From Rhodospirillales bacterium (GTDB lineage: Bacteria; Pseudomonadota; Alphaproteobacteria; Rhodospirillales; JANQFP01), in NCBI GenBank assembly GCA_028277795.1, contig JANQFP010000208.1, positions 3,751-67,750 on the forward strand: a stretch of 64,000 nt of DNA. The letters are read 5' to 3'. Below, in pieces: positions 2,079 to 44,969 of the stretch; within the stretch, counting starts at the first letter, position 1; each line of letters opens with the position of its first letter. The notes under the pieces were generated by a model. It worked only from the letters and a program-made list of their open reading frames with translations, was not told the origin of the DNA and ran no database searches. A program made the translations under genes and the position numbers.

Positions 2079-2094
2079 TGGCACAGGATTTGCT
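2079..2094 (+). promoter_or_regulatory. Sigma-54 (-24/-12) promoter TGGCAC-N5-TTGCT
   Basis: The sequence TGGCACaggatTTGCt matches the consensus TGGCAC-N5-TTGCW exactly. It sits 66 nt upstream of the ATG at 2160. An AT-rich tract (2042-2068) lies between it and the palindrome and could be a bending site. Confidence 0.8.
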
Positions 2095-2558: not shown

Positions 2559-3689
2559 ATGCGGGTGAGAGCATGGCTGGCGGCGGTCTGTCTGACCCTG
2601 GTCCCGGCCGGGGCCCATGCGGCGGACTATCAGACGACCACGGTCATGGTCCAGGAGGTGGGCCAGCAGGCCACGGTCGGCGGGACGGTCATTCCCTACA
2701 AGGAGGTGACCCTGGCCGCCCAGATCCCGGGGCAGGTGATCCACCTGGCGGGCAGCGAGGGTGATCGCTTTCAGCTCGGCGCCGTGCTGGTCGCCATCGA
2801 CGACGACGCCCTCCAGGCCCAGCGCCGTGCCGCCCTCGCCCAGATCTACAACGCCGAAGCGGCGCTCAGGAACGCCCACGTCCAGTACTCCCGGGAGCTG
2901 ATCTCGCCGCGCATGAACAGTCCGACGACCATGCCCGGCATGGGGTCGCCCAATATGTTCGACCAATTCTTCACCCGCGGCTTCAGCGACTGGACGGGAC
3001 GCAGCGACACCCGCTTCGAGCGCCATGCCAACCTCTATGCCCAGGGCAGCGGCGTCAACCAGGCGCAGAGCGCGTTGTTGCAGGCCCGCGCCCAGGTGGA
3101 GACCCTCGACGCCAAGATCCGCGATGCCCGCCTGCTGGCGCCTTTCGACGGCGTCATCGTGCAGAAGATGGTGGAGATCGGCGACACGGTGCAGCCGGGG
3201 CAGCCTTTGCTGCGCTTCGCCCATACGGAGTACCTGCGCATCCAGGCCGAGGTGCCGGTACGCCTGGTATCGGCGCTGCGCAAGGGCATGCTGGTGCCGG
3301 CGCGCCTGGACGTGCGCGGCGCCCTGGTGCAGGCGAGGGTGGCACGCATCTACCCGATGGCCGACGCGTCGCGCCACACGGTGACGGTGAAGTTCGATCT
3401 GCCGAGGGGTGTTCCCGGCGGCCCCGGCATGTACTCCGAGGTGCGCATTCCCGACCACACCATGCGGGCGCGCAGCCTGCCGGTGGTGCCGGAGACGGCG
3501 TTGGTGTGGCGGGGCAGCCTGCCGGGCGTGTTCGTCGTCACCAACGGCCGGCTGTCTTTGCGGCTGCTGCGTCTGGGCGTGCCGACCGGCACCGGCGTGG
3601 TCAGCGTGCTCGCCGGCCTGCGCGGGGGCGAGCAGATCGTGCTCAAACCGCCGCCGGGCCTCGCCTCGGGAGTCAAGAAGGCGAAATAA
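2559..3689 (+). CDS. Efflux RND transporter periplasmic adaptor (HlyD/MFP family)
   Basis: It has a signal peptide (MRVRAWLAAVCLTLVPAGAHA), a coiled-coil hairpin region and beta-barrel motifs (APFDGVIVQKMVEIGDTVQPGQPLL). It lies directly upstream of the RND permease. Confidence 0.85.
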   Translation: MRVRAWLAAVCLTLVPAGAHAADYQTTTVMVQEVGQQATVGGTVIPYKEVTLAAQIPGQVIHLAGSEGDRFQLGAVLVAIDDDALQAQRRAALAQIYNAEAALRNAHVQYSRELISPRMNSPTTMPGMGSPNMFDQFFTRGFSDWTGRSDTRFERHANLYAQGSGVNQAQSALLQARAQVETLDAKIRDARLLAPFDGVIVQKMVEIGDTVQPGQPLLRFAHTEYLRIQAEVPVRLVSALRKGMLVPARLDVRGALVQARVARIYPMADASRHTVTVKFDLPRGVPGGPGMYSEVRIPDHTMRARSLPVVPETALVWRGSLPGVFVVTNGRLSLRLLRLGVPTGTGVVSVLAGLRGGEQIVLKPPPGLASGVKKAK

Positions 3690-3737: not shown

Positions 3738-6700
3738 ATGGCCGAGACCCAAACGCCGCACCAGCCCCAGGACCCGTCCGCCCACGCGCACGGCCACACC
3801 CTCGGGCTGGCCGGCCGTATGACCCGGGCCTTCATCCATTCGCCGCTGTCGCCTCTGCTGCTGCTGGCCAGCCTGTCGGTGGGCATTCTCGGCCTGCTGT
3901 TCACGCCGCGCCAGGAGGACCCGCAGATCTCGGTGCCGATGATCGACGTGTTCTTCGGCTACCCGGGCGCGTCGGCCGAGCAGGTGGCGAGCCTGGCGGT
4001 CGACCCCCTGGAGCGGATCATGAGCGAGATCCCGGGGGTCAAGCACGTCTACTCCGCCTCCCAGCGGGGCGGCGGCATGGTCACCGTGGAGTTCGACGTG
4101 GGCGAGGAGATGGAGCCTTCGCTGGTCAAGCTCTACGACAAGCTGATGTCCAACATGGACAAGGTGCCGCCCGGGGTCACCGAGCCCCTGGTCAAGCCCA
4201 AGGGGGTGGATGACGTCCCCGTCGTCACCCTGACCCTGTGGTCCCACGACCTGGACGACGCGGCCCTGCGCCTGATCGGCCTCGACGTGCTGCAGCGGCT
4301 CAAGGAGGTGCCCGACACCAGCCAGAGCTTCATCGTCGGCGGCCGGTCCGAGCAGATCCGGGTCGAGGTGTTCCCCGAGCGCTTGGCCGGCTACGGGGTC
4401 AGCGCCGGGCAACTGGCCCACACCATCTCCACCGCCAATGCGGAGCAGGGGGCCGGGTACGCGGAATCGGCGGGCGGCAGCTTCGAGCTCTACTCGGGCG
4501 CCTTCCTGACCCGCGCCGAGGACATCGAGCGCCTGGTGGTCGGCGTCCGCAACGGCGCCCCCATCTACGTGCGCGACGTGGCCCTGGTGCGCGAGGTCGC
4601 CGAGGAGACCCGGGCGCTGGTGCAGTACTACACCGGCAGGGCCTACGGGCAGGACTTCGAGAAGCGGTTCGACGTCAAGCCCCCGATCGAGGCCGGGGAC
4701 GGCACGCCGGCGGTCACCATCGCCGTGGCCAAGAAGCCCGGCACCAACGGCGTCACCGTGGCCGCCGCCATCCTCGAGCAGGTGGAGCAGCTCAAGGGGC
4801 GCATCATCCCTGACAACGTCCAGATCGCCGTCACCCGCAACTATGGCGAGACCGCCAACGACAAGGTCAACGAGCTGATCTTCAAGCTGTTCATCGCCAC
4901 CGGCGCGGTGACCCTGCTGATCTGGTTCTTCCTCGGCTTCCGCGCCGCGGTGGTGGTGCTGATCGTCATCCCGGTGGTCATCCTGGTCACCGTCTTCTCG
5001 GCCTGGCTGCTCGGCTACACCATCGACCGGGTGAGCCTGTTCGCCCTCATCTTCTCCATCGGCATCCTGGTCGACGACGCCATCGTGGTGATCGAGAACA
5101 TCTACCGCCGCTGGCTGATCAAGGGCGAAGTGGACACCGAGACCTCGGTGGACGCCGTCCGCGAGGTGGGCAACCCCACCATCCTGGCCACCTTCACGGT
5201 CATCGCCGCGCTGCTGCCCATGGGCTTCGTCAGCGGCATGATGGGGCCGTACATGGAGCCCATCCCGGTGCTCGGCTCGGTGGCCATGCTGTTCTCGCTG
5301 TTCGCCGCCTTCATCTTCACCCCCTGGCTGGCCATCCGCATCCGTCCCAGCCTGGCCAAGCTCGACAAGGCCCAGGTCAAGGAGCACCGCCAGTCGGAGC
5401 GCCTGGACGGGGTGTTCCGGCGCATGTTGACGCCGCTGATCGATCACCGGGGCCGCCAGGTCATGCTGCGGGTCAGCATCTACGCCGTGTTCGCGCTGCT
5501 GTGCGCCATGTTCTACACCACCCACGTCACGGTGAAGATGCTGCCGTTCGACAACAAGCCCGAGTTCAACGTGGTGGTGAACATGCCCGACGGCACGGCG
5601 CTGCCGGAGACCGCCAACGTCATCCAGCGCCTGAGCGAGGAGGTCCTCGACATCCCGGAGGTGGTCGCCATCCAGACCTACGCCGGCACGGCCTCGCCCT
5701 TCAATTTCAACGGCCTGGTCCGCCACTACTACCTCAGGCAGGACTCCTGGCAAGGCGACATCCAGATCCAGCTCCTGCACAAGAACGACCGCGAGCGGAG
5801 CAGCCATCAGATCGCGTCGGCGGCGCGCGAGGCCCTGACGCCCATTGCCAGCGATCTGGGCGCCAAGATCCAAATCGTCGAGATGCCGCCGGGACCGCCG
5901 GTGCTGCAGACCATCGTGGCCGAGATCTACGGGCCCGACCAGCACACCCGGCGCAAGGTGGCGCGCGACATCACCGGCCTGTTCGAGGAGGCGCCGAGCG
6001 TCGTCGACGTCGACAATTACCTGCAGGACCCCTACGAGATCTGGCGCTTCGTAGTCGACCGCGAGAAGGCGGTCCGGCGCGGCGTGTCGGTGGAGGACGT
6101 CAACACCCAGCTCGGCATGGTCATGGGCGACTTCAAGCTCGGCGACGTCAAGGTCGGACGGGTCCTGGAGCCGCGCTACATCACCCTGCAGGCTCCCATG
6201 GCCCTGCGCAGCCAATTCTCGCGCATGGGCGAGCTGCCGATCCCGTCGTCCCAGGGCAACCTGATCCCGCTGGGCGAGCTCGGCCAGTTCGAGCGCATCA
6301 CCCAGGATCCCATCGTATTCCACAAGGACCTGCGTCCCGTCGAGTACGTGACCGGCGACGTGGCCGGCCGCCTCGGTGCGCCCATCTACGGCATGCTGGA
6401 GGTCGAGGATCTCCTCGCGGATTACGTGGCGCCGGACGGTATCCGCGTGGAGACCGAGTACCTGGGACCGCCCAAGGACAGCTTCGCGTCGGCCTTCGAG
6501 TGGACCGGCGAATGGACGGTCACCTACGAGACCTTCCGCGACATGGGCCTGGCCTTCGCCGCCGCCATGGTCCTGATCTACATGCTGGTGGTGTGGGAGT
6601 TCGGCAACTTCCGGCTGCCGGGGATCATCATGGCGCCGATTCCGCTCACCTTGATCGGCATCATTCCGGGCCACTGGTTGTTCGACGCAGAGTTCACCGC

Positions 6701-7988
6701 AACCTCGATGATCGGGTTCATCGCCCTGGCCGGCATCATCGTGCGCAACTCCATCCTGTTGGTGGATTTCTCCAAGCAGGCGGTGGAGGCGGGCACCGAT
6801 CTCAGGGAGGCGGTCATTCAATCCTGCCGTACCCGGACCCGGCCTATCCTGATCACCGCTTTCGCCCTGGTGCTGGGCTCGAGCGTCATCCTCACCGACC
6901 CCATCTTCGAAGGGATGGCCATCTCGCTGATGTTCGGGGTCATGGTCTCGACCCTGCTCACCCTCGTCATCATCCCGCTGGGCTGCGTCCGGGCCAGGAA
7001 CTCCTTCGCCATTCCGCCTGCCGACCCGGCGGTCGCTGCTGCGGCGCCGGCCCCGGCCATGGCGGCCCCGGCCGCCGCGGGCGCCGCCGCGGCACCGGGC
7101 GCCGCAGCGTCGCCGACCGGTTTCGCCGATGAAGCCGGAAAGCCGGGCCGCCTGGCCAGGATCGGGCGGGCGGTGTTCATGGCGCCGGCCATTCTGCTCA
7201 TGTTCCTGGGTGCCGCCCTGCAGACCATCTTCGGGCGGTTCCAGAAGTTCCCGCCGGTCCGCTGGATCACCATGATCGTCTACGGCCTGCGGGCGCTGCC
7301 GTATTTCGTCATGCTGTTCCTGCGCGAGACCTTCAAGAGCAAGGGCGGCGGAGACCGGGCGCCGCAGCCGGCCGCCGCCGCGCCGGCGCCTTCGGCCCCG
7401 CCAGCCGCCGCGGAGCCCGCGGCGCCGCAGCCACCCGCGCCGGCAGCGCCACCCGAACCGGAGCCGGCCCCGGAGCCGGTCGTGCCGTCGGAGCCCGTTC
7501 CGGAGCCCGCCGAGCTGGCTTCGGAGCCTGCGCCCGAGCCGGCCCCTCCGCCTGCCGCCTCGGAACCGGCGAGCCCGGTCCGGCCGGCCGAGAAGCCTGC
7601 CCGCAAACCGGTCGCCACGGAGCGCCGGACCATCAAGCCGAAACCGCCGGCGCCGCGGCCCGAGGCACCTTCGACGCCCGCCGCCACCGGCGATGCGGCC
7701 GAGGCCGGACGGGAGCGCGAGACCACGGCGGCGCCGGCGCCGGCCCGGCCCGGCAAACGCGCCATCCGGCCGCGCCCCATCGCTCCGAAGAAGGCCGCTG
7801 CGACGGGGCCTGCCGAGGCGGGGAAAGCCGAGCGGCCGGCCGCCAAGACCGCCAAAGCCCCTGGTAAGAAGCCCGCCGCCGACGAGAAACCATCGCCGAC
7901 CGGCCGGCGTCCCGGCGAGCGCCGCGGCATTCGCCTCAGAATCAAGCCCGGCCAGGGAAAGAAGCCGGGACCGGAAGGGAGTCGGTGA
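3738..7988 (+). CDS. RND efflux permease (AcrB/COG0841-like) with an atypical ~330-aa C-terminal extension
   Basis: The 12-TM RND core has typical motifs (FALIFSIGILVDDAIVVIENI, GFIALAGIIVRNSILLVDF) and ends near nt 7000. The frame then stays open for about another 330 codons, encoding two extra hydrophobic helices and a Pro/Ala/Lys-rich tail. Confidence 0.9.
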   Translation: MAETQTPHQPQDPSAHAHGHTLGLAGRMTRAFIHSPLSPLLLLASLSVGILGLLFTPRQEDPQISVPMIDVFFGYPGASAEQVASLAVDPLERIMSEIPGVKHVYSASQRGGGMVTVEFDVGEEMEPSLVKLYDKLMSNMDKVPPGVTEPLVKPKGVDDVPVVTLTLWSHDLDDAALRLIGLDVLQRLKEVPDTSQSFIVGGRSEQIRVEVFPERLAGYGVSAGQLAHTISTANAEQGAGYAESAGGSFELYSGAFLTRAEDIERLVVGVRNGAPIYVRDVALVREVAEETRALVQYYTGRAYGQDFEKRFDVKPPIEAGDGTPAVTIAVAKKPGTNGVTVAAAILEQVEQLKGRIIPDNVQIAVTRNYGETANDKVNELIFKLFIATGAVTLLIWFFLGFRAAVVVLIVIPVVILVTVFSAWLLGYTIDRVSLFALIFSIGILVDDAIVVIENIYRRWLIKGEVDTETSVDAVREVGNPTILATFTVIAALLPMGFVSGMMGPYMEPIPVLGSVAMLFSLFAAFIFTPWLAIRIRPSLAKLDKAQVKEHRQSERLDGVFRRMLTPLIDHRGRQVMLRVSIYAVFALLCAMFYTTHVTVKMLPFDNKPEFNVVVNMPDGTALPETANVIQRLSEEVLDIPEVVAIQTYAGTASPFNFNGLVRHYYLRQDSWQGDIQIQLLHKNDRERSSHQIASAAREALTPIASDLGAKIQIVEMPPGPPVLQTIVAEIYGPDQHTRRKVARDITGLFEEAPSVVDVDNYLQDPYEIWRFVVDREKAVRRGVSVEDVNTQLGMVMGDFKLGDVKVGRVLEPRYITLQAPMALRSQFSRMGELPIPSSQGNLIPLGELGQFERITQDPIVFHKDLRPVEYVTGDVAGRLGAPIYGMLEVEDLLADYVAPDGIRVETEYLGPPKDSFASAFEWTGEWTVTYETFRDMGLAFAAAMVLIYMLVVWEFGNFRLPGIIMAPIPLTLIGIIPGHWLFDAEFTATSMIGFIALAGIIVRNSILLVDFSKQAVEAGTDLREAVIQSCRTRTRPILITAFALVLGSSVILTDPIFEGMAISLMFGVMVSTLLTLVIIPLGCVRARNSFAIPPADPAVAAAAPAPAMAAPAAAGAAAAPGAAASPTGFADEAGKPGRLARIGRAVFMAPAILLMFLGAALQTIFGRFQKFPPVRWITMIVYGLRALPYFVMLFLRETFKSKGGGDRAPQPAAAAPAPSAPPAAAEPAAPQPPAPAAPPEPEPAPEPVVPSEPVPEPAELASEPAPEPAPPPAASEPASPVRPAEKPARKPVATERRTIKPKPPAPRPEAPSTPAATGDAAEAGRERETTAAPAPARPGKRAIRPRPIAPKKAAATGPAEAGKAERPAAKTAKAPGKKPAADEKPSPTGRRPGERRGIRLRIKPGQGKKPGPEGSR

Positions 7989-8704
7989 TGGAATTCAGAT
8001 CGCTCACCTGTGCCGTGGCGTTCGTCGGCCTCGCCGGGCTGACCTGGGCCGGGACGGCGCTGGCGCAGGGCGCCGCGGTGCCGGCGCCGCCGGAAGGGCC
8101 GTACGCCTCGGGCGAATTGCCGCCCGTGCATACGACCGAGCCCGGCGGGGGCTTCCCGCCCCTCGACTACGATCCCAGGCGCGCCTCGGTGCCGCGACCG
8201 GCGTGGACCAAGCCCCGCGCTCCTTCGATGCAGCGGGTGATCCCGGCGTGGCGCCCGGTCGTGCCCCAGCCGCGGACGAGCCGGGAGCCGACCCCGCAGC
8301 GGGGAGAGCAGGCGCGGACGGCGACTCCGGCCGCACGGCCGTGGCCGGGACTGGTCCCCTACCGGATGCCGTCCGGGACCTTGCCTGCGACGCGTCCCTC
8401 CGCGTGGCCGGTGCCGCGGCCGGTAACGCCGCCGGCTCCGGCCGTGACGCGGCCGCAAGCGACCGCGCCCGCGCAGATCCCGAGTCCGGCGGCACCGGCA
8501 GGCGGGGCCATCAAGCCGGCCCGCCCGCCGGAATCGGCGCCCAAGGAGGCGCCGACGTACGCGCCCTTGCCGGAAGGCGAGGGCTCGGTGTGGCGTCCCC
8601 GCGGCGAGGACCGTGAGAGGGCGCCCTACCGTCCGTTCCGGCATGGAGCGTCGTCCTGGGGCGGCGCCGAATATGGCGCGTCGTCCGCCACGGACTCGCG
8701 TTGA
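7985..8704 (+). CDS. Exported proline-rich protein (hypothetical)
   Basis: A signal peptide is present (MMEFRSLTCAVAFVGLAGLTWAGTALAQG) and the rest is ~25% Pro. The start overlaps the RND stop (GTGATG). There is no recognisable domain. Confidence 0.5.
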   Translation: MMEFRSLTCAVAFVGLAGLTWAGTALAQGAAVPAPPEGPYASGELPPVHTTEPGGGFPPLDYDPRRASVPRPAWTKPRAPSMQRVIPAWRPVVPQPRTSREPTPQRGEQARTATPAARPWPGLVPYRMPSGTLPATRPSAWPVPRPVTPPAPAVTRPQATAPAQIPSPAAPAGGAIKPARPPESAPKEAPTYAPLPEGEGSVWRPRGEDRERAPYRPFRHGASSWGGAEYGASSATDSR

Positions 8705-8724
8705 ACCAGGTGATCGGAAGTCCC

Positions 8725-9732
8725 ATGACAAATTCCTTGGCGCGCCTCGTTCTCTCCGCCCTCGCCGTGGCCTCGCTGGCAGCCGGCGCGTGGGCCGGCA
8801 ACCCGTGGCAGAGCCAGTCCGACTACTACGGCGGGGCGCAGCAGCAGGCTCCGTCGTGGTCGACGCCGGCGCCCTACACGGCCGATACCCTGCTTCAGCG
8901 GGCCCGCCCCTCGGTCCCGTCGGCGCCCGGGGTGCAGCCCTACGGAGCGCCGGGCGCGCCGCACCAGGCGCCGACAACCGGGTACTACCCGGCGCCGCAG
9001 CAGCAGTACCCGGGTACCGCGCCGCAGTATCCGGCGCCGGGCTACGGGGCCGCACCGTCGGACCAGCCGGTCTATGGCGGGCAACCTGGCGGCTATGGCC
9101 CGGGGGACTACGGAGGCGGCATCCCGCCGACCCAATTCCCCTCGGCGGCCAGCCCTTATGCGCCGGGAGGGCAGGTCTACGCACCGCCCCTGTCCGAATA
9201 CCCGCCGCTCGACGATTCCGTGCCGCCGCGCGCCGGACCGCCGCCGGGGACCTACGCGCCGCCAGCCGGCTACGCGCCGCAGCAAACGGCCCCGACGTAC
9301 GCGGCTCCGCCGGCCGGCTATGCGACCCAGCAGCCGGCACCAAGCTACGCAGCGCCGCCGGCCGGCTACGCGACACAGCCGACGACCACCTACGCGCCGG
9401 CGGGGACGCAGGCCGCGCCGGTGATCACATACCCTCAGGCAACCGTGGTGGCGCCGCAAGTCGGCTATCCGGCCTACGGAGTGCCGGGGCTGGGATACGG
9501 CGGCCTCGGCCATCCGGGTCTGGGCTACGGTCTCGGGTACGGCGGCCTGGGCTACGGTCTGGGCTATCCGGGGCTGGGATACGGCGGCCTCGGCCATCCG
9601 GGCCTGGGCTACGGTCTCGGGTACGGAGGCCTTGGCCACGGTCTCGGGTATGGAGGTCTGGGTTACGGGGGTCTGGGTTACGGGGGGCTCGGTTATCCGT
9701 GGTTGGGCGGATTTCCGGGGCTCACATGGTGA
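8725..9732 (+). CDS. Exported Pro/Tyr/Gln-rich protein with a C-terminal GLGYG repeat array
   Basis: The signal peptide is MTNSLARLVLSALAVASLAAGAWA. It is followed by YAPP/YPAP repeats and then (P)GLGYGGLGH / GLGYG repeats, ending in GFPGLTW. The ATG at 8725 is preferred over the TTG at 8701. Confidence 0.6.
   Translation: MTNSLARLVLSALAVASLAAGAWAGNPWQSQSDYYGGAQQQAPSWSTPAPYTADTLLQRARPSVPSAPGVQPYGAPGAPHQAPTTGYYPAPQQQYPGTAPQYPAPGYGAAPSDQPVYGGQPGGYGPGDYGGGIPPTQFPSAASPYAPGGQVYAPPLSEYPPLDDSVPPRAGPPPGTYAPPAGYAPQQTAPTYAAPPAGYATQQPAPSYAAPPAGYATQPTTTYAPAGTQAAPVITYPQATVVAPQVGYPAYGVPGLGYGGLGHPGLGYGLGYGGLGYGLGYPGLGYGGLGHPGLGYGLGYGGLGHGLGYGGLGYGGLGYGGLGYPWLGGFPGLTW
9484..9651 (+). repeat. Two tandem 84-nt units (~92% identical) encoding 28-aa PGLGYGGLGHPGLGYGLGYGGLG(Y/H)GLGY
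   Basis: I aligned the two units by eye (9484-9567 against 9568-9651) and found 6-7 mismatches in 84 nt, in frame. Confidence 0.85.
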
Positions 9733-9840
9733 TGGCCCGTGGCGGGTATCGTGTCGCCACGGGGCAGGACGGATACCGGGGGCGTTCCCTCCTTCCGGCG
9801 TCCGAAGTGGGAGAGGGAGCAAACATTGAGGAGTAAATCC

Positions 9841-10194
9841 ATGAGGAAAACTCTCAAGGCACTCGCCGTGGCGGGTCTGTTCGGCGCCGCCAGCGCCCTG
9901 CCGATCGGCGACGCCAATGCGTTCATGTTCAGCAGCGGCCCCGGCGGCGACGGATTCAACTTCAGCATGGGCTCCGGCGGCTACGGCTGGGGCCGTGGCC
10001 ACGGCTGGGGCGGCCCGTGGGGCGGCTACGGCGGCCCGTGGGGCGGCGGCTACGGCTGGGGCGGCCCGTGGGGCGGCTACGGCTATGGCGGCCCGTGGGG
10101 CGGCGGCTACGGCTACGGCGGCCCGTGGGGCGGCTACGGCTATGGCGGCCCGTGGGGCGGCTATGGCGGCGGCCCCTGGGGTGGTTGGTGGTAA
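9841..10194 (+). CDS. Small exported Gly/Trp/Tyr-repeat protein (GGPWGGYG repeats), paralog 1
   Basis: The ATG at 9841 follows a GAGGAG Shine-Dalgarno sequence. The signal peptide is MRKTLKALAVAGLFGAASALPIGDANA. The mature ~90 aa are almost entirely G/W/Y/P with about 9 GGPWGG(G)YG units, ending GGPWGGWW. Confidence 0.75.
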   Translation: MRKTLKALAVAGLFGAASALPIGDANAFMFSSGPGGDGFNFSMGSGGYGWGRGHGWGGPWGGYGGPWGGGYGWGGPWGGYGYGGPWGGGYGYGGPWGGYGYGGPWGGYGGGPWGGWW

Positions 10195-10213
10195 ACACCG
10201 GCTCTGGCTGGTC

Positions 10214-10236
10214 GGACGGCCCTTATTCGGCCGTCC
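10214..10236 (+). terminator. Hairpin GGACGGCC-cttattc-GGCCGTCC downstream of paralog 1
   Basis: It has a perfect 8-bp GC stem and lies 20 nt after the stop codon. There is no U-tract, so the terminator call is tentative. Confidence 0.4.
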
Positions 10237-10394
10237 GGCTGGCCGCCACCACACACACTTGAAAGGGTCCTGCCGAGGTTAGGTCGCGTGATGCGGCGGG
10301 GCCCGCGGTCCCACAGGGGAGGACGGATGCCGGGGGTTTTCCCTCCTTCCGGCATTCGAGGTGGGAGAGGGAACAGAGTTCGAGGAGTAGAGCC

Positions 10395-10727
10395 ATGAGG
10401 AAAACTCTGAAGGCACTCGCCGTGGCGGGTCTGCTCGGTGCCGCAAGCGCCGTGCCGATCGGCGACGCCAAAGCGTTCATGTTTGGCGGCGACGGCATGC
10501 ACTTCAGCATGGGCGACGGCTATGGGTATGGCCGTGGCTACGGCTGGGGTGGCCCTTGGGGTGGCTGGGGCGGCCCTTGGGGCGGTTACGGTCCCTATGG
10601 CTGGGGCGGTCCGTGGGGCGGCTACGGCCGGGGCGGCCCGTGGGGCTATGGCGGCCCGTGGGGCGGCTATGGCTGGGGCGGCCCTTGGGGCGGCTACGGT
10701 GGCGGTCCCTGGGGTGGTTGGTGGTAG
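10395..10727 (+). CDS. Small exported Gly/Trp/Tyr-repeat protein (GGPWGGYG repeats), paralog 2
   Basis: Its signal peptide is nearly identical to paralog 1 (MRKTLKALAVAGLLGAASAVPIGDAKA). It has the same repeat type, the same GGPWGGWW C-terminus and the same 74-nt leader. Confidence 0.75.
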   Translation: MRKTLKALAVAGLLGAASAVPIGDAKAFMFGGDGMHFSMGDGYGYGRGYGWGGPWGGWGGPWGGYGPYGWGGPWGGYGRGGPWGYGGPWGGYGWGGPWGGYGGGPWGGWW

Positions 10728-10742
10728 GCACCGACCGCGGCT

Positions 10743-10770
10743 GGACGGGCGGCCCGTTCGCGAACCGTCC
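10743..10770 (+). terminator. Hairpin GGACGG...CCGTCC downstream of paralog 2
   Basis: It occupies the same position as the hairpin after paralog 1, with a 6-bp outer stem. There is no U-tract. Confidence 0.3.
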
Positions 10771-10904
10771 GGCCACCACCCCGCATGCTCGGCAGGCTCC
10801 CGCCGCCGGCACGATCGCGTGACGCGGCGGGTCGGGTGACGCCGCACCGGTTGCGGTGCGGTGTCATCCCCCTGCCCGGCAATAGAACAAAGGGAGTGAA
10901 GTCC

Positions 10905-11783
10905 ATGCGGAAATACCTGTGGTTTCCCGCCGCAGTCTTCTTTCTCGCCGGCGCCGCCGGTGCCCAGGCGGGAAGCCCGTCGTTCACCGCGGACACCGTG
11001 CAGCGCCATCCCCAAGCCGGTGTGCAGCAGGGGCGCATCTTCGTCTCCGAGCTCGGGACGCGCATGGAGGGCAAGGACCAGCAGGGCCGCCAGGTGATCC
11101 AGATCACCCTGCCCAAGGAAGGCATCATGCGGGTGCTGTTCCCCGAAGAGGGGACCTACATGGAGGTCCAGGGGCCCAAGGCTCCGGCCCAGCCGATGCC
11201 CAAGCCGGACAACCCGTGCGCCATGGCGCCGCCGGAGAGCAAGTGCGAGCGGGTCGGCACCGAGACCCTGGGTGCGGTGGCGACCGAGCAGTATCGTTTG
11301 ACCATCAAGGACGCCAAGGGGCCGGTGACCGTCTGGTGGGATCCCCAGCGCAAGCTTCCCCTGCGCCAGGAGAACCCCGACGGCAGTTCCGTACAGCAGA
11401 CGCTTCGCGGCGAGACCCAGTACGAAGGCCGCCGGGTCGAGCACTGGGTGACGACCATGGTCACGCCGCAGGGACAGACCCATACCGTTCAGAGATGGGA
11501 CGACCTGGAACTCAAGATTCCCGTGTACCAGCAGTTGGGTGAAGGCACGACCAGCGAGTTGCACAACATCCGGCTGGTCAGTCCCGACCCGGCGTGGTAC
11601 CAGGTACCGCAGGGCTATCGGCGGGTGGAGCCCCAACAGCAGCAGCAACAGCAGCAGCCGCAGCAACAGCAGCGGCAGTGGGGCGCCCAGCCGCCCCCGC
11701 AACAGCCCAGGCAGCAGTGGCGCGGTCAGCCGCAGCAGCCGCAGCAGCAATGGGGGGGCCAGCGACCTGCCTGGCAGCGGTGA
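10905..11783 (+). CDS. Periplasmic LolA-like / DUF4412-like protein with a C-terminal polyglutamine tail
   Basis: The signal peptide is MRKYLWFPAAVFFLAGAAGAQA. A beta-rich body follows (RIFVSELGTRMEGKD..VIQITLPKEGIMRVLFPEEGTYMEV). The last ~50 aa read QQQQQQQQPQQQQRQWGAQPPPQQPRQQWRGQPQQPQQQW. The ATG at 10905 is preferred over the track start at 10785. Confidence 0.6.
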   Translation: MRKYLWFPAAVFFLAGAAGAQAGSPSFTADTVQRHPQAGVQQGRIFVSELGTRMEGKDQQGRQVIQITLPKEGIMRVLFPEEGTYMEVQGPKAPAQPMPKPDNPCAMAPPESKCERVGTETLGAVATEQYRLTIKDAKGPVTVWWDPQRKLPLRQENPDGSSVQQTLRGETQYEGRRVEHWVTTMVTPQGQTHTVQRWDDLELKIPVYQQLGEGTTSELHNIRLVSPDPAWYQVPQGYRRVEPQQQQQQQQPQQQQRQWGAQPPPQQPRQQWRGQPQQPQQQWGGQRPAWQR

Positions 11784-12421
11784 TGATCACGGTCGTCGGC
11801 AATCTCAAGGGCGGGACGGGGAAGAGCACCGTCGCCTTCAACCTGGCCATCTGGCTGCTCGCCCGGGGGCGCAAGGTCGAGTTGTGCGACCTCGACCCCC
11901 AGGCGACGCTGCACGATGCCGCCGAGGTCCGCATGGAGGAGGGGTACGACCCGGGATTGAGCGTTCTCGACCGCATCCCCCAGAAGCCGCAAAGCGAGAT
12001 CCTGGTGGACGTGGGCCTGTCCGACCAGGACGCCATGCAAAAAGCCATCGCGCGCGCCGGCCAGATCCTGATCCCGGTGGCGCCGAGCCAGGCCGACGTA
12101 TGGTCCACCCAACGTTTTCTCGAGATTGTCGACGAGGTGGCGCCGAAACGGAAGCGGCCGCGCCTGGTCGCCTTCATCAACCGTGCCGATACCCATCCCG
12201 CGGCCCGCGAGAACGAGGAGGCGTCGACCGCCCTTCGTCTGCTGGACGGCCTGACCGTGCTCAGGCCGCGCCTGGCCCAGCGGATGGCCTTCCGCCGTTC
12301 GTTCAGTGAGGGCCTCGGCGTGTTTGAAATGGAACCTCGCGGCAAAGCCGCAAAGGAACTCGAGGCGCTGGCCATCGCCCTGTTCGGTCGCGGCCGTGGC
12401 AAGCAAAAAGACGAGGAATAA
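11783..12421 (+). CDS. ParA/MinD-family P-loop ATPase (deviant Walker A)
   Basis: The N-terminus MITVVGNLKGGTGKSTVAFNLA contains the deviant Walker A KGGxGKS/T. DLDPQ and a Walker B-like ILVDVG are also present. The start ATG overlaps the upstream stop (TGATGA). The part of the track ORF upstream of 11783 is an out-of-frame-gene artefact. Confidence 0.85.
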   Translation: MITVVGNLKGGTGKSTVAFNLAIWLLARGRKVELCDLDPQATLHDAAEVRMEEGYDPGLSVLDRIPQKPQSEILVDVGLSDQDAMQKAIARAGQILIPVAPSQADVWSTQRFLEIVDEVAPKRKRPRLVAFINRADTHPAARENEEASTALRLLDGLTVLRPRLAQRMAFRRSFSEGLGVFEMEPRGKAAKELEALAIALFGRGRGKQKDEE

Positions 12422-12438: not shown

Positions 12439-13341
12439 ATGGCTACCATTCGTTGGCTGTTTACGAACCTGTTGATCGTCCTGGTGGTCGTGACCGGCAT
12501 CCTCGGTGCCGCCTATTGGCGGGAGATCCGCCAATACCTGGTCGTCGTGGCCGACGAGTGGGGCATCGAGGCCACGGCCTTGCGCACCACCGGCCACGCA
12601 ACGCCCCGTCCGGCCGCGCCGCCGCCGATGACGGCCGCGCCAGCCCCGGCCGCGCCGCCGGCGGCGGCGCCACAACCCGCCGCGGCGCCGCAACCGCCGG
12701 CCCCAGCCCCGGCCGCGCCGCCGAGCGCGGCAGCGCCGCCGCCCGCAGCGGCTCCGGCGCCGAGCCCTCCGGCCCCGCCGGCGGCCGCGCCGCAGCCGCC
12801 CGCCGCAGCGGCGCCGAGCCCCTTGATGCCACCTGCGGCACCCAGGCCGGGTGGTTACACACCGCCGCAGGGCACCTATGCCCCGCCGGCCCCCGCCTAC
12901 CGGCCGGCGAGGCCGGCCGCCCCGCCGGCGGCGGCTCCGGCCCCCGCTGCCCCGCCGCAGGTGACGACCGCGCCGCCACCGTCGGCGCCGGCCCCGGCGG
13001 CCCAGGACACCGCCGACCTGCGCCAAGGCTGGATCGAGGCGCGACGCGCCTACTGGACACGGGATCTGGAGACGGCCGAAGAACGCTACCGGGCGTTGAT
13101 CGCCCGCCACCCGGACCAGGTGGACCTCCTGGGCGAGCTGGGCAACGTGTACTTCGCCCAGGGTAAGATCAAGGAAGCGGCTTCGCAGTATTTCGAGACC
13201 GGGCTGCGGATGCTCGACGGGCCCAATCCGGCCCGCGCCGGCACCGTCCTCAGCCTGCTCGAGCGGCTCGATCCGGACAAGGCCAGTGAACTGCGCCAGC
13301 GCATGTTCGAGGCCATGCAGGGCCGCGGTCCGGCCCGCTGA
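12439..13341 (+). CDS. Membrane-anchored Pro/Ala-rich protein with a C-terminal TPR-like domain
   Basis: The N-terminal TM segment is WLFTNLLIVLVVVTGILGAAYW. A ~150-aa PAAPP low-complexity linker follows. The C-terminus is TPR-like (AEERYRALIARHPDQVDLLGELGNVYFAQGKIKEAASQYFETG). Confidence 0.65.
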   Translation: MATIRWLFTNLLIVLVVVTGILGAAYWREIRQYLVVVADEWGIEATALRTTGHATPRPAAPPPMTAAPAPAAPPAAAPQPAAAPQPPAPAPAAPPSAAAPPPAAAPAPSPPAPPAAAPQPPAAAAPSPLMPPAAPRPGGYTPPQGTYAPPAPAYRPARPAAPPAAAPAPAAPPQVTTAPPPSAPAPAAQDTADLRQGWIEARRAYWTRDLETAEERYRALIARHPDQVDLLGELGNVYFAQGKIKEAASQYFETGLRMLDGPNPARAGTVLSLLERLDPDKASELRQRMFEAMQGRGPAR

Positions 13342-13388: not shown

Positions 13389-13985
13389 ATGAACCTCATC
13401 CGCAACATCCTGGCGATCATCGGGGCTCTGGTCATCGTCGGCGCGGCCGTCGCCTATCCGACCGTCTCCCGCTTCCTCGAGTTCGACGAGGGGGCGATGG
13501 ACACCTACGCCGAGATGATGACCAAGCTCCTGGAGACCGGCAATCCGGCGGAAGCCACCGTCTGGAAGATGAAGGTCGCCGACGGCATCACCTTCGAAGA
13601 GCTGGAAGAAACCATGCGCTTCGTCGCCAACGAGCACAACTTCATGAACGTGGGCGAGTTGCCGTTCTACCGGCAGATCGAGGCGATCTACGAGCAGACC
13701 CCGGGATTCGAGGGCAGGAAACGGCGGATCACCAAGTTCTACCTGTTCTGCGATGCGCTGGTGGGCGCCGACATGCTGGACTACAGCGACGCCTACTCGG
13801 CCTATATGCCGTGTCGAATCAGCGTCGTAGAAGATAAGGACGGAAACCTGTGGCTCTATTCCATGAACATGGACATGATGATCCACGGAGGCGACCCTTT
13901 GCCGCCTAAGCTCAAAGAGGACGCCATTCGGGTCAAGAAGGTCATGCTCGACATTATGAACCGTGCGGCGTCGGGCGACTTCTGA
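13389..13985 (+). CDS. DUF302-domain protein with an N-terminal membrane anchor
   Basis: A TM or signal-anchor segment (ILAIIGALVIVGAAVAY) is followed by a DUF302-like core containing YMPCRISVVEDKDGNLWLYSMN. Confidence 0.65.
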   Translation: MNLIRNILAIIGALVIVGAAVAYPTVSRFLEFDEGAMDTYAEMMTKLLETGNPAEATVWKMKVADGITFEELEETMRFVANEHNFMNVGELPFYRQIEAIYEQTPGFEGRKRRITKFYLFCDALVGADMLDYSDAYSAYMPCRISVVEDKDGNLWLYSMNMDMMIHGGDPLPPKLKEDAIRVKKVMLDIMNRAASGDF

Positions 13986-14058: not shown

Positions 14059-15597
14059 ATGTTGACCGGCCCCGGTAAGACCCTGGCTGCCCGATTGGCC
14101 AGCCTGGAGGCCCAACTGAAGGCTGAGCATCCTGACCTCCTGGAGGCGGTGCCCACCTACAAGCGCATGGATCGGCTGCTCTATGGCATGGGCTTGATGA
14201 GCACCGACGAATCCCTGGCCACGCGCATTCCCTGGTGGCCGCTGATCGCGGTGCTCGGCACCTTCTCGTCGGGCAAGTCCACCTTCATCAACCACTACCT
14301 GGGCCTCAAGCTCCAGGCCACGGGCAACCAGGCGGTGGACGACAAGTTCACGGTGATCTGCTACGGCCCCGACGACGAGCACCGGGTGCTGCCGGGCACC
14401 GCCCTGGACGCGGACCCCCGCTTCCCGTTCTATGGAATGAGCGCCGAGATCGACAAGGTGGCGGCCGGCGAGGGCAAGCGCATCGACGCCTACCTGCAGC
14501 TCAAGACCGCCTGCAGCGAGGCGCTGAGAGGCAAGATCCTTATCGATTCCCCGGGATTCGACGCCGACGACCAGCGCCGCTCGACCCTGCGCCTGACCGA
14601 TCACATCATCGACCTCTCCGACCTGGTCCTGGTGTTCTTCGATGCCCGCCATCCCGAGCCGGGGGCCATGCAGGACACCCTGGAGCATCTGGTCGCCGCC
14701 AACCTGAAGCGCCCGGATGCCAGCAAGTTCCTGTTCATCCTCAATCAGCTGGACACCACGGCGCAGGAGGACAACCCCGAGGACGTGGTGGCCGCGTGGC
14801 AGCGGGCGGTTGCCCAGGCCGGCCTGATGACGGGCCGCTTCTTCTGCATCTACAACGAGCAGGCCGCCGTCCCCATCCCCGACGAGGCCTTGCGCCGGCG
14901 CTTCGAGGGCAAGCGCGACGTGGACATGGACGAGATCTACCGGCGCATCCGGGACGTCGAGGTACAGCGCGCCTACCGCATCGTCAACGTCCTGGAGGCA
15001 GTGGGGGACGACCTGGAGAAGGACGTGGTTCCGGTCCTCAACGAAGTCCTGTCACGGTGGCGCAAGAGGGTGCTGATGGTCGACGGCATCGCCTTCGTGG
15101 TGGCGGCGTTGGTGACCGTCGGCGTGGGCTTCGCCGTCGGCGGGGAGGCGGTGGGCACGGCGTGGCAGTGGCTGCTGGACGTGCATCCGCTTGGCCTGGC
15201 GGTGGCCCTGGCCCTGGTGTTCACGGCCATGGCCGGCGTCCATTTCGCGGTGCGCAACGTGCTGGCCCGCATGATGGCGCGGGATTTGCCCGAGTCCTAT
15301 GGCCCGGTGGAGCTGAACCTGCGTGAGGCCTTCATCAAGAACACCCGGTACTTCCGGGCCCTGTACCGTCAACATCCCGTCGGTTGGGGCCGCCGCACCA
15401 TGCGGCGGCTGCGTGAGATCGTCGACGCGGCCGACCGGCACGTGCAGCGATTGAACGACATGTATACCGACCCCTCGGGCCACCGGGCAAAGGCCGAAAC
15501 CGAAGCGCCCGCGACGTCGGCGCCCCCGGAGGAGGAGCCGGCGGCCACCAAGAGCGGTCCGTTCTTAACCAAGGCGGCGGGCGGCAAGAGCGGCTGA
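14059..15597 (+). CDS. Dynamin-family (bacterial dynamin-like) GTPase with a C-terminal hydrophobic paddle
   Basis: G1 is GTFSSGKST, G3 is DSPGFD and G4 is NQLD. A hydrophobic hairpin is present (IAFVVAALVTVGVGFAV ... LAVALALVFTAMAGVHFAV). Confidence 0.8.
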   Translation: MLTGPGKTLAARLASLEAQLKAEHPDLLEAVPTYKRMDRLLYGMGLMSTDESLATRIPWWPLIAVLGTFSSGKSTFINHYLGLKLQATGNQAVDDKFTVICYGPDDEHRVLPGTALDADPRFPFYGMSAEIDKVAAGEGKRIDAYLQLKTACSEALRGKILIDSPGFDADDQRRSTLRLTDHIIDLSDLVLVFFDARHPEPGAMQDTLEHLVAANLKRPDASKFLFILNQLDTTAQEDNPEDVVAAWQRAVAQAGLMTGRFFCIYNEQAAVPIPDEALRRRFEGKRDVDMDEIYRRIRDVEVQRAYRIVNVLEAVGDDLEKDVVPVLNEVLSRWRKRVLMVDGIAFVVAALVTVGVGFAVGGEAVGTAWQWLLDVHPLGLAVALALVFTAMAGVHFAVRNVLARMMARDLPESYGPVELNLREAFIKNTRYFRALYRQHPVGWGRRTMRRLREIVDAADRHVQRLNDMYTDPSGHRAKAETEAPATSAPPEEEPAATKSGPFLTKAAGGKSG

Positions 15598-16064: not shown

Positions 16065-16097
16065 GCGGGGTCCTCCTCGGGCCGGGGCCGGGAGCGG

Positions 16098-17498
16098 TTA
16101 CTTGTACCCTCTCAGCTCGTCGATGTACTCGGGCAGGAACAGGGAGATCTCGGGCACGTAGGTGATCAGGATCAGGAACAGAACCAGGATTCCCGCCCAC
16201 GGCAGGGCGGCCCGTAGCACCCAGAGCAAACTTCGCCCGGTGATGCCGGCGGCGACGAACAGATTAAGGCCCACCGGCGGCGTCACCATGCCGATCTCCA
16301 TGTTCACCACCATGATGATGCCCAGGTGGACGGGATCGATGCCCAGCTGGACGGCGATGGGCAGCAGGATCGGGGCCATGATCAGCAGGATCGCCGACGG
16401 CTCCATGAAATCGCCGGCGAGGATCAGGATGACGTTGAGGACGATGAGGAACCCCCAGGCGGGCAGACCCCAGCCGATGATGGCCTCGGCGATCAAGTGG
16501 GGAATGCGCTCGGTCGTCAGCACATGGGCGAACAGCATCGCGTTGGCGATGATGAACAGCAGCATGATGGCGACTTTGGACGCGTCGAGGATGACCCTGT
16601 GGACGTCGGGATCGCCGGCGCTCCGCACCAGCGCAACGCCCATGCCGCCGACATTGCGCATTGCGGCCGTGGCGAGGGGCTCGTCGGGGCGACGCCATGG
16701 CACCCCTTTCATGGGGCCGATGTCCCTGTAGCCGAAGATGGACACGCAGTAGGCATAGAACGCCGACACCGCGGCCGCCTCGGTGGGGCTGGCGATGCCG
16801 CCGTAGATGGCGCCGAGGACGATGATGATCAGGAAGATGCCCCCCGACGCGGCGAAGGCCGAGACGAAGACCTCGCGGAACCCGGCCCACGGCTGGGCCG
16901 GCAGGTTCTTGACCCGGGCCGCGATATAGATGGCGACCATCAGCATCAGGCCCATGATGATGCCGGGGATGAAGCCGGCCATGAACATGCGCGCCGCCGA
17001 GACCTCGGTGGCGGCGGCGTAGACCAGCATGACGATGGACGGGGGAATGAGGATGCCCAGGGTACCCGCGTTGGAGATCACGCCGACGGCGAACCGCTCC
17101 GGGTAACCGGCGCGGACCATGCCTGCGATGACGATGGAGCCGATGGCGGCCACGGTGGCCGGCGACGAGCCCGACACGGCGGCGAACAGCATGCTGGCCA
17201 GCACCGAGGCCATGGCCAGGCCGCCGCGCACCATGCCGACGACGGAGATGGCGAAGCGGATGAGCCGTCGGGCCACGCCGCCGGTGGACAGGAAGGCCGA
17301 CGACAGGATGAAGAACGGGATGGCCAGCAGGGTGTAGTGCTCGGACAGGTTCTCGAAGAACTTGAGCGCCACGGAGGCCAGGGAATCGGGGGAGAAGAAC
17401 AGGATGGTGACGACGCTGGACAGGCCCAGGGCGATTGAGATGGGCATGCCCAGGAACATGCACCCGAACAGGATGATGAACAGCGCAGCGGTGGTCAT
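16098..17498 (-). CDS. dctM: TRAP transporter large permease DctM (copy 2, no cognate DctQ)
   Basis: It is ~80% identical by eye to the DctM at 18695-20095. The ATG at 17498 (MTTAALFIILF) aligns with the start of the paralog. Confidence 0.9.
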   Translation of the reverse strand: MTTAALFIILFGCMFLGMPISIALGLSSVVTILFFSPDSLASVALKFFENLSEHYTLLAIPFFILSSAFLSTGGVARRLIRFAISVVGMVRGGLAMASVLASMLFAAVSGSSPATVAAIGSIVIAGMVRAGYPERFAVGVISNAGTLGILIPPSIVMLVYAAATEVSAARMFMAGFIPGIIMGLMLMVAIYIAARVKNLPAQPWAGFREVFVSAFAASGGIFLIIIVLGAIYGGIASPTEAAAVSAFYAYCVSIFGYRDIGPMKGVPWRRPDEPLATAAMRNVGGMGVALVRSAGDPDVHRVILDASKVAIMLLFIIANAMLFAHVLTTERIPHLIAEAIIGWGLPAWGFLIVLNVILILAGDFMEPSAILLIMAPILLPIAVQLGIDPVHLGIIMVVNMEIGMVTPPVGLNLFVAAGITGRSLLWVLRAALPWAGILVLFLILITYVPEISLFLPEYIDELRGYK

Positions 17499-21956: not shown

Positions 21957-22904
21957 ATGAGCAAGAAGGCGGACCCGACGAAGCCGGGCAAGGGGAAGGC
22001 GAAAAAGGCCGACAAGCCGGAACCGCAGCAGCCCGCGCAGCCGACCCTTCGCGTCGTCGAAGACGCGGCGCCGGAACCCCACTACGATCGACCGATCGAG
22101 GAGATCCGGGGCGAGACAAAGGCCAAGCTCAAGAACCAATTCTACGAAGCGGAACTGGCCCGCCTGCAGGAAGAACTCGTCAAGCTGCAGGAATGGATCA
22201 AGCACAAGGGCCTGAAGGTGGTGGTCATCTTCGAGGGCCGCGATGCCGCCGGCAAGGGCGGCGTCATCAAGCGCATCATGCTCAGGCTCAACCCGCGCAT
22301 CTGTCGCGTCGTCGCCCTCGGCACGCCGACCGAGCGGGAGAAGACCCAGTGGTACTTCCAGCGCTATGTACCCCATCTGCCGGCGGCCGGGGAAATGGTC
22401 CTGTTCGACCGCTCCTGGTACAACCGGGCCGGGGTCGAGCGGGTGATGGGCTTCTGCACGCAGGAGGAACACCGGGAGTTCCTGCGCTCCTGCCCGGAGT
22501 TCGAGCGCATGCTGGTCCGTTCGGGCATCACCCTCATCAAGTACTGGTTCTCGGTCAGCGACGAGGAGCAGGAACGCCGCTTCCAGGGGCGCATCACCAA
22601 TCCGGTCAAGCGCTGGAAACTCAGCCCCATGGACCTGGAATCCCGCAAGCAGTGGCTGGAGTACTCGAAGGCCAAGGACGAGATGTTCGCCCACACGGAC
22701 ATCAAACAGGCGCCGTGGTATGTGGTCGAGGCCGACCAGAAGAAGCGGGCGCGGCTCAACTGCATCCGCCACCTGTTAAGCATGATCCCTTACGAGGACC
22801 TGACGCCCGAACCCATCGAGCTGCCGCCGCGGCAGCCCGACAGGGGCTACGTCCGACCGCCCATGGACGATCAGACCTTCGTGCCCGACGAATACGAAGA
22901 CTAA
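21957..22904 (+). CDS. ppk2: Polyphosphate kinase 2 (PPK2)
   Basis: The sequence VVVIFEGRDAAGKGGVIKRI is the Walker A region. QWYFQRYVPHLPAAGEMVLFDRSWYNRAGVERVMGF is the canonical PPK2 core. Confidence 0.9.
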   Translation: MSKKADPTKPGKGKAKKADKPEPQQPAQPTLRVVEDAAPEPHYDRPIEEIRGETKAKLKNQFYEAELARLQEELVKLQEWIKHKGLKVVVIFEGRDAAGKGGVIKRIMLRLNPRICRVVALGTPTEREKTQWYFQRYVPHLPAAGEMVLFDRSWYNRAGVERVMGFCTQEEHREFLRSCPEFERMLVRSGITLIKYWFSVSDEEQERRFQGRITNPVKRWKLSPMDLESRKQWLEYSKAKDEMFAHTDIKQAPWYVVEADQKKRARLNCIRHLLSMIPYEDLTPEPIELPPRQPDRGYVRPPMDDQTFVPDEYED

Positions 22905-24487: not shown

Positions 24488-24667
24488 GGCACGATCGAAT
24501 GGCAAATGGGTGTCGGAGGTGATTTCGACCCTACCACAAGATCATGACAGGAACTATCACGGTCCCGGCCGCGGGCCCGTCGATGGCCTGGAACCCGCCG
24601 CCCGTGGTGTGGTAACGCAGGAGACGGCCCCGAGGTCGGGCCGGGCACGGGCAGGGAGCGGCGGGGC

Positions 24668-44965: not shown

Positions 44966-44969
44966 CCGG

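Follow-up and report, generated by a model that had tools for sequence, protein, structure and literature searches.

Two small genes lie in tandem on the forward strand of a 64,000-nt stretch of contig JANQFP010000208.1 from a Rhodospirillales bacterium, and this whole stretch is called the window here. Gene 1 (9841-10194, start codon ATG) encodes a protein of 117 aa and gene 2 (10395-10727, also ATG), its tandem paralogue, one of 110 aa. Each gene follows a leader of its own, and both are part of a conserved cluster of ~15 kb in which a divergently transcribed activator gene is followed by genes for a conserved open reading frame (ORF), an HlyD protein, an RND exporter, two low-complexity proteins, a sulfur globule protein (SGP), orf292, ParA, a TPR protein, a DUF302 protein and a dynamin-like protein. 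On balance, we consider it reasonably probable that the pair are tandem duplicates of a divergent, Trp-rich SGP of the SgpA/SgpB (CV1/CV2) type, which occupy the SGP slot of this cluster, are preceded by a cis-acting leader RNA and likely supply a sulfur-globule coat.

The two products are 89% identical overall. As read off the sequence, both start with a Sec-type signal in which MRK forms the n-region, 20 hydrophobic residues the h-region and A-x-A (ANA or AKA, followed by F) the cleavage site, and the signal peptides, MRKTLKALAVAGL(F/L)GAASA(L/V)PIGDA(N/K)A, agree at 24 of 27 residues. Members of the SGP family are small precursors (~90-130 aa) with a cleavable Sec signal, and the predicted precursors of 117 and 110 aa lie within this range. 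The mature parts consist of G (49-51%), W (13-16%), Y (11%) and P (9-10%), together ~85%. As in SGP, glycines and aromatic residues are regularly spaced, W, Y and F reaching 28-30%, with Trp in place of the usual Tyr/Asn bias. The signal is followed by an FSM motif and, in both proteins, by GGPWG repeats and the C-terminus GGPWGGWW. An earlier note on this DNA had recorded two small ORFs with near-identical signal peptides, this identical end and gap-free 74-nt leaders with 82% identity, all of which we find again (61/74 identities between 9767-9840 and 10321-10394 for the leaders), while its count of about nine GGPWGG(G)YG units must be corrected to seven GGPWG units per protein. Identity between the paralogues is 93% in the signal-peptide codons, 89% in the mature coding sequence (CDS), 82% in the leader and 73% in the 3′ flank. 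Since the leader value lies between those of the CDS and the 3′ flank, paralogue identity by itself shows only a recent tandem duplication.

Comparison with other genomes shows that the leader is a real conserved element. In both window genes the Shine-Dalgarno (SD) sequence GAGGAG is located 7 nt 5′ of the ATG and two helices, P1 and P2, can be drawn upstream of it. In leader 1 (9770-9840, forward strand) the P1 arms are 9770-9782 and 9792-9804, the two strands of P2 are S2a, UUCCCUC (9785-9791), and S2b, GAGGGAG (9813-9819), and the SD is at 9828-9833. The corresponding parts of leader 2 (10324-10394, forward strand) are 10324-10336 and 10346-10358 for P1, 10339-10345 for S2a, 10367-10373 for S2b (GAGGGAA) and 10382-10387 for the SD. 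The leaders of cluster-borne SGP genes in Alphaproteobacteria share the pattern (U)UCCCUC, 20-26 nt, GAGGGA(A), 20-24 nt, AUG, and the spacing from GAGGGA to AUG in the window is 23 nt. The core pattern is found at just these two sites of the window, against 0 expected by chance. A covariance model, R1, was built from eight leaders, none of them from the window, and run over a search space of 1.42 Mb; its best matches outside the seed are the two window leaders (10325-10377, 35.1 bits, E 6e-6; 9771-9823, 29.8 bits, E 1.6e-4), with no further match in the window. R1 also retrieves metagenome relatives and the independently obtained leader of locus L165 (E 2e-5), and gives no match at SGP genes that stand alone. 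With Rfam 15, the whole window holds no match at the gathering score and the segment 9650-10900 only miRNA/snoRNA noise at E 1-8; a scan of metagenomes with the leader DNA returned 0 matches.

The sequences on both strands of P2 (UCCCUC/GAGGGA), which in the window comprises 7-8 bp, were compared on a gap-free alignment anchored on the arms. Three core pairs are invariantly C-G. The two inner pairs can form in 20/20 leaders and are made of UA, AU or CG in one case and of CG, UA or GC in the other, although the alignment register was chosen by best pairing, so that the pairing percentage is inflated. Covariation in P2 is 0.240 compared with 0.105±0.022 in shuffles (0/500 reach it) and 0.146 in the best slid control. 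The clearest compensatory change comes from leaders L048b and L098b, whose tract is (G/A)CCCAC and whose partner is GUGGGU in place of GAGGGA, the SD staying GAGGAG. Because the partner changes with the tract and the SD does not, the selected partner is the decoy, not the SD.

P1 joins the segment 5′ of the tract to the segment right after it and thus encloses UCCCUC. In the window it pairs CGGAU(A/G)CCGGGGG with CCUUCCGGC(G/A)U(C/U)CG, with 12/13 pairs in leader 1 and 13/13 in leader 2. The helix is present in every lineage with differing sequences, such as CAUCGGG/CCCGAUG, AUGGAG/CUCCAU, GAACG/CGUUC and UUUCGGGAG/CUUCCGGAA. By duplex energy, the leaders' own arms beat shuffled arms (Fisher p 6e-10, 11 lineages) and also swapped arms (-17.0 versus -12.0 kcal/mol; 0/20000 permutations). 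On an alignment whose register was not optimised, covariation in P1 is 0.394 against 0.274±0.030 (0/500), and 25 cells are changed on both sides where 13.4 are expected. G-U cells (35) outnumber A-C cells (13), which argues that the pairing takes place in the sense-strand RNA. Three substitutions that distinguish leader 1 from leader 2 (A to G, G to A and C to U) all fall in P1, where pairing is kept or improved. P1 and P2 are therefore both conserved and covarying helices. RNAalifold gave no information on the model-derived, sequence-driven alignment, in which the helices fall out of register, and MAFFT alignments of the hairpins were misregistered, so that sequences of equal length were used.

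The nucleotides of P1 and P2 are disjoint and follow each other in the order S1a, L1 (2-5 nt), S2a, L2 (0-2 nt), S1b, L3, S2b, which is the topology of an H-type pseudoknot; the P1 loop of 8-11 nt holds the conserved anti-SD-like (U)UCCCUC. We suggest that both helices may coexist as such a pseudoknot. H-type pseudoknots close to the ribosome binding site are known from 5′ leaders including the E. coli rpsO/S15 operator, the T4 gene 32 leader and the SAM-II and preQ1-II riboswitches. The window leader resembles them in the succession of its parts (S1a-L1-S2a-S1b-L3-S2b, S2a and S1b being 0-2 nt apart), in a 3′ edge ~10 nt 5′ of the SD and in a predicted equilibrium with alternative hairpins, and it differs from them in that stem 2 is an anti-SD/SD-like duplex with the real SD outside the fold and in having no Rfam match. 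Another relative in appearance is the ar14/'cuckoo' group of alphaproteobacterial sRNAs, which carry anti-SD loop motifs CCUCCUCCC. They too, in Alphaproteobacteria, show a C/U-rich anti-SD-like tract in a hairpin loop, whereas the window tract is a cis element of an mRNA leader, with a conserved partner in the same molecule; no Rfam match for this group appears at E<=10. A reading of P1 plus a U run as an attenuator was dropped, as a U run is missing from the window leaders and P2 comes 3′ of P1.

Some related structures were seen outside this set. Weak matches to the leader models (E 0.02-0.25) occur on the opposite strand ~1.7 kb downstream of the SGP gene in L011 (16924-16967, reverse strand) and L100 (15204-15262, reverse strand); they contain CACUCCCUCCUGCAGGUGGGAGG and have no obvious ORF after them. 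In Gammaproteobacteria the layout of the SGP leader is reversed, with GGGGAGG, ~25 nt and CUUCCCC just 5′ of the SD (L070 ~14760-14837, L023 ~14690-14767, L030 ~14770-14848), an arrangement that may represent an analogous leader hairpin of different construction.

What relates the two proteins to the SGP family is a profile and a position. The window motif GDG(F/M)(N/H)FSMG..YG.GRG.G was aligned by MAFFT to the family motif GDFSMNFSGRG.G.GYG. With the N-proximal SGP motif written more generally as GD(G)DFSM(S/N)FSG(R/K)GxGxGYG, the window segment would be a diverged version of it. An alignment of 15 proteins from the SGP slot of related loci (A4), 10 of which match the Pfam family PF17228 (best E 7e-25), was compared with the window pair by hhalign. 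The full-length pair gives a probability of 98.2% (E 4e-14, residues 1-59); after removal of the signal peptides the probability is 86.7% (E 4e-6) and the score 35.4, which none of 60 column shuffles reaches (17.0±3.9, maximum 28.1). A hidden Markov model (HMM) of 15 locus proteins, used without composition correction, scores the window proteins at 78 and 71 bits and their shuffled mature parts at 57±6 and 53±6. The A4 profile itself retrieves 222 proteins, mostly PF17228, and some of these carry the source names 'sulfur globule protein CV1' or 'sulfur globule family protein'. At the level of profiles, homology of the window proteins to the SGP family is thus supported. Nearest in appearance are the variants with a terminal W of the Magnetococcales loci L046 and L026, which end in GGPWW or GGPWGW; W-terminated variants also occur in L044 and L049.

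The position was examined through the RND gene, the marker of the cluster. A scan of species genomes with the RND protein yielded 568 relatives, the best 80 of which were used for locus comparisons, with gene presence judged by tblastn of the window proteins. Among these 80 loci, RND was found in 80, HlyD in 76, ParA in 43, orf2160 in 35, orf292 in 33 and dynamin in 29. The top of the list is held by Alphaproteobacteria with RND identities of 74-75% (Rhodobium orientis, metagenome-assembled genomes (MAGs) of Rhodospirillaceae, Magnetovibrio and Magnetospira), and further down come Magnetococcales, Thiohalomonadaceae, Chromatiales, Thiomargarita/Thioploca and a lucinid symbiont; metagenome contigs reach 78-79%. 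The cluster thus ranges over Alpha- and Gammaproteobacteria and Magnetococcales, and most of its lineages are named for sulfur oxidation or are known sulfur storers. A G-rich gene with the FSM motif lies downstream of RND in at least 48 of the 82 loci with sufficient downstream sequence, and the proteins of this slot are small, secreted and rich in G, W, Y, N and P, with the motif GDGDFSMSFSG(R/K)GxGNGYG. The window genes occupy exactly the slot of the PF17228-positive genes in syntenic loci, where the counterparts score 46.5, 44.7 and 30.9 bits, all over the gathering cut-off of 26.7 bits. The reverse test, with three PF17228 proteins drawn by the SGP profile and not by the RND scan, led for one of them, P0126, to L165, whose gene order is identical to that of the window and whose RND protein is 77% identical. 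By motif, architecture and position, the window proteins would be divergent members of an SGP superfamily; by the curated model they are not members. A second SGP gene was observed ~3.6 kb upstream of the RND gene in L048 (6283-6697) and L098 (4463-4901), and it is this gene that has the variant leader, L048b or L098b, described above for P2.

The remainder of the cluster is arranged as follows. The divergent regulator with PAS, sigma-54 activator and HTH_8 domains is encoded on the reverse strand (535-1938); all other genes of the cluster are on the forward strand. Between it and the first operon gene is a perfect sigma-54 promoter, TGGCACAGGATTTGCT (2079-2094, forward strand), and the exact consensus recurs in 34 loci, just 5′ of the first operon gene wherever the gene map was compared. 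The first operon gene, orf2160 (2160-2555), encodes a conserved protein of 131 aa and is followed by those for the HlyD-type membrane fusion protein (2559-3689) and the AcrB-type RND exporter (3738-7988). The exporter has a C-terminal extension (6981-7988) of ~335 aa past the ACR_tran domain, a Pro/Ala-rich tail also rich in Glu and Lys; the L165 homologue has 1393 aa, and the extension is therefore kept in length and hardly in sequence. Two secreted proteins come next, one Pro-rich (7985-8704, 239 aa; a 276-aa low-complexity protein fills this slot in L165) and one rich in P, Y, Q and G (8701-9732, 343 aa), with GLGYGG six times and the end ..PGLTW. Most alphaproteobacterial loci have, ahead of the SGP gene, a positional counterpart of the latter with an aromatic end (..MPWF, ..SPFGFW, ..TPGMW). 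Downstream of the gene pair are orf292 (10905-11783), a conserved secreted 292-aa protein with a Q-rich tail, a ParA/MinD-type P-loop ATPase (11783-12421), whose start MITVVGNLKGGTGKST overlaps the preceding stop, a TPR protein with a Pro/Ala-rich linker (12439-13341), a DUF302 protein (13389-13985) and a dynamin-family GTPase (14059-15597). Beyond the cluster, the window encodes TRAP transporters and an alpha-amylase, two PPK2 polyphosphate kinases close together (21957-22904, forward; 23528-24505, reverse) and a complete-looking type VI secretion system (43808-62406) with TssA, IcmF, DotU, VasE, VipA/B, Hcp and TssE/F/G. In the open-access literature we found no description of this cluster, nor of an sgp leader RNA.

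Three hairpins, all on the forward strand, surround the two genes. One abuts the stop codon of the upstream gene on one side and leader 1 on the other (9733-9766, dG -24.2, z -4.2), one follows gene 1 (10200-10247; 19 bp made of a 16-bp core and three outer pairs, dG -37.4, z -5.2) and one follows gene 2 (10739-10774; outer stem of 10 bp, dG -25, z -0.35). With their G+C-rich stems right after each stop codon they resemble intrinsic (Rho-independent) terminators, and they differ from these in that no U tract follows any of the three and that the consensus scan finds no terminator there. The earlier note was therefore right about a hairpin after each gene, and canonical intrinsic terminators these are not. 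A sigma-54 consensus is likewise absent ahead of the SGP-like genes. Short G+C-rich hairpins that lack a U tract were also seen 3-10 nt 5′ of P1 in most alphaproteobacterial loci (for example L085 ~6000-6020, L048 ~15495-15510 and L005 ~16090-16105), as at 9733-9766 in the window; such a hairpin might either close the preceding gene at its 3′ end or belong to the leader element.

How do the two genes compare with known sulfur-globule systems? SgpA and SgpB (CV1/CV2, PF17228) share with the window genes the small size, the Sec signal, the repetitive Gly/aromatic mature part and the occurrence as paralogous pairs, and also a leader of ~75-80 nt and a hairpin after each gene; PF17228 genes share the genomic slot as well. 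Their motif D-F-S-M-x-F-S-G-R-G-x-G-x-G-Y-G stands against G-D-G-F-N-F-S-M-G-S-G-G-Y-G-W-G-R-G in the window. Unlike the SGP family, with its repeats rich in GYG, PYG and N, the window proteins contain 13-16% Trp and GGPWGG repeats, the mature N-terminus is FMF in place of WWG, the Pro/Ala tail is absent and the end is WW, and they fall under every sequence threshold for the family. In A. vinosum, the sgp genes have leaders of ~79 nt with hairpins of their own and are reported to be transcribed singly, each from a promoter of its own (PMC10386293). The sgpD gene (Alvin_2515) of that species has as neighbours a transcriptional regulator and an RND exporter of the hydrophobe/amphiphile type (PMC10386293), a setting comparable to that of the window pair. 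SgpD differs in kind from the window proteins, with a predicted helical structure, and the published description of its locus does not report ParA, dynamin or sigma-54 elements.

A rival to the SGP assignment is that the likeness may be compositional only, the two products being generic exported Gly/aromatic matrix proteins and the RND-ParA-dynamin cluster serving another envelope structure or inclusion. We regard this as rather unlikely; the following observations weigh on its side or against our assignment. Neither window protein matches PF17228 at E<=1 or any NCBIfam model, BLASTP against named SGP proteins finds nothing, and phmmer against 1.84 billion representatives returns just two eukaryote-like repeat proteins. 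Look-ups of the exact sequences of the pair and of three other window proteins found none of the five on record. The 15-protein HMM gives negative scores once composition is corrected, pairwise Smith-Waterman z values against named SGPs are just 1.0-5.0, and the AWWG mature N-terminus and Pro/Ala tail typical of SGP are missing. Two of the three independently sampled PF17228 genes stand alone. Some loci, among them those of Rhodobacteraceae MAGs and isolates that are not known globule formers, have the cluster but lack a gene of SGP type at this position. The 64-kb window contains no sox, dsr, sqr or fcc genes. Other large secreted families rich in Gly, Tyr and Trp exist that are not SGP; one of them, unnamed and with no Pfam family (P0002-P0121, from metagenomes, ~110-135 aa), combines AQAFNFGNMMNPSRWF, DRDRYYDRGYY, GGPYGWGGPYG repeats and PSTIVVNPS..APPPRLPE and appears distinct from SGP and from the window proteins. 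Among further searches, scans of the pair and its neighbours with Pfam and NCBIfam gave only a weak Lamprin match on the upstream 343-aa protein, a word-indexed homologue search gave five weak matches, and a mixed profile of these and the window proteins was captured by the different family AQAFNFGNMMNPSRWF...PRLPE and is uninformative on SGP-like genes. A scan of genomes with window-protein motifs had 34 pattern matches and 0 confirmed ones, a number that fits chance by a rough estimate. The resemblance to Sgp proteins suggested by the earlier note, for which an HMM or BLAST search had been proposed, hence finds no direct match in PF17228, BLASTP or phmmer, and it is in the profile match and the SGP slot that it finds indirect support. 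What a shared composition leaves unaccounted for is that the motif-level profile match exceeds all 60 shuffles, that the slot is that of PF17228-positive genes in loci whose RND proteins are 74-79% identical, that the window genes and those SGP genes have the leader RNA in common, and that the taxa bearing the cluster are mostly sulfur oxidisers and magnetotactic bacteria. The latter are known to contain sulfur globules (PMC4169400).

The leader, for its part, can be read in three other ways, and several points count against the two-helix fold that we prefer. Besides the inflated P2 pairing mentioned above, the folding energies of single 74-nt leaders are ordinary when set against dinucleotide shuffles (z 0.00 and 0.07), P1 and P2 compete in nested-structure thermodynamic predictions, and the prediction tools used cannot evaluate pseudoknots. 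The earlier note had proposed a simple hairpin, TCCCTC...GAGGGA around an inner stem CTTC-GG/CC-GAAG, alternating with a fold in which CUCCU sequesters the GAGGAG of the SD. Both stems are present in the window, the outer one is conserved with compensatory changes and is the minimum free energy fold of leader 1, CUCC is complementary to every SD in the leader set, and the SD is predicted to be mostly paired in some orthologues. In the orthologous leaders, however, the inner stem carries no conservation signal: 53.4% of it is paired against 50.8±2.6 in shuffles (106/500 reach this value), and its covariation is 0.236 against 0.216 (139/500). Its nucleotides belong to the covarying P1, as do the A to G and C to U substitutions that had been assigned to it, which do form G-U pairs. 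With the decoy of L048b and L098b covarying with the tract next to a constant GAGGAG, SD sequestration receives no support either, and we judge this model improbable. Even less credit can be given to the idea that leader similarity is a by-product of tandem duplication and P1 a DNA operator or promoter palindrome. It would agree with a leader identity of 82%, between 89-93% in the CDS and 73% in the 3′ flank, with folding z values of ~0 and with the fact that P1 is an inverted repeat in DNA, but R1, with a seed drawn from other genomes, recovers both leaders, the P1 arms diverge between lineages while complementarity is kept, and the 35 G-U versus 13 A-C cells speak for strand-specific RNA pairing. 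A third option, which we hold to be possible though doubtful, dispenses with switching. By analogy with the ompA 5′ untranslated region and the intercistronic hairpins of the puf operon, P1 would be a 5′ stabilising stem-loop, or the processing boundary of a segment cut from a long sigma-54 operon transcript, and the SGP messages would be long-lived through the combined effect of P1 and the 3′ hairpins. A scan for sigma-70 promoter and terminator consensus found nothing at either gene, the lack of a promoter being also a point against our own reading; the sigma-54 promoter is far upstream, the genes are bracketed by strong hairpins (9733-9766, z -4.2; 10200-10247, z -5.2) with no U tract after them, and a hairpin lies just 5′ of P1 in most orthologues. 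Such a role would leave unexplained the invariant loop tract and its conserved, covarying partner, which keeps a fixed spacing to the AUG, and the sgp genes of A. vinosum are reported as monocistronic with their own promoters (PMC10386293).

A model of how this locus might work can be proposed on the reading of a divergent SGP pair with a cis-acting leader. The gene pair would have arisen when the gene for a divergent SGP-superfamily member, unusually rich in Trp, was recently duplicated in tandem, and its products are predicted to be Sec-exported, low-complexity structural proteins of ~9 kDa. Their likeliest role would be in the coat or matrix of periplasmic sulfur globules, to which they would localise, or of a closely related envelope inclusion. 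Within the cluster, RND and HlyD may provide export, the secreted low-complexity proteins may be further matrix proteins, the ParA-like ATPase may act in positioning and the dynamin-like GTPase in membrane remodelling, the whole being presumably controlled by the PAS/sigma-54 activator. The leader fold would hold the anti-SD-like tract on the SD-like decoy GAGGGA beside the ribosome binding site, leaving the true SD free, and would cap the 5′ side of an mRNA segment bracketed by strong hairpins that lack U tracts. The outcome would be a stable and efficiently translated message for a very abundant protein, and melting of the leader element, or binding of a factor to it, would lower expression. 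The leader may act either as a static enhancer and stabiliser or as a signal-responsive switch.

Sulfur globules are a classic inclusion, yet to our knowledge little has been learned about their assembly, export and positioning beyond four coat proteins in one organism. If our reading is correct, the SGP family would be wider in sequence space than its curated model, with WW-ending, Trp-rich variants that are invisible to Pfam, BLAST and phmmer. The coat genes of many lineages would be embedded in a sigma-54 cluster, which would make RND, the ParA-type ATPase and the dynamin-like GTPase concrete candidates for biogenesis and positioning factors, and the conserved two-helix leader of alphaproteobacterial coat genes, which has pseudoknot topology and no Rfam match, would be a case for post-transcriptional control of an abundant structural protein. 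More tentatively still, and with clearly less confidence than in the assignment of the gene pair, we raise the possibility that the leader might represent an undescribed class of cis-regulatory pseudoknot RNAs dedicated to alphaproteobacterial globule coat genes, and that the sigma-54 cluster might be a globule biogenesis and positioning module common to purple, colourless and magnetotactic sulfur bacteria.

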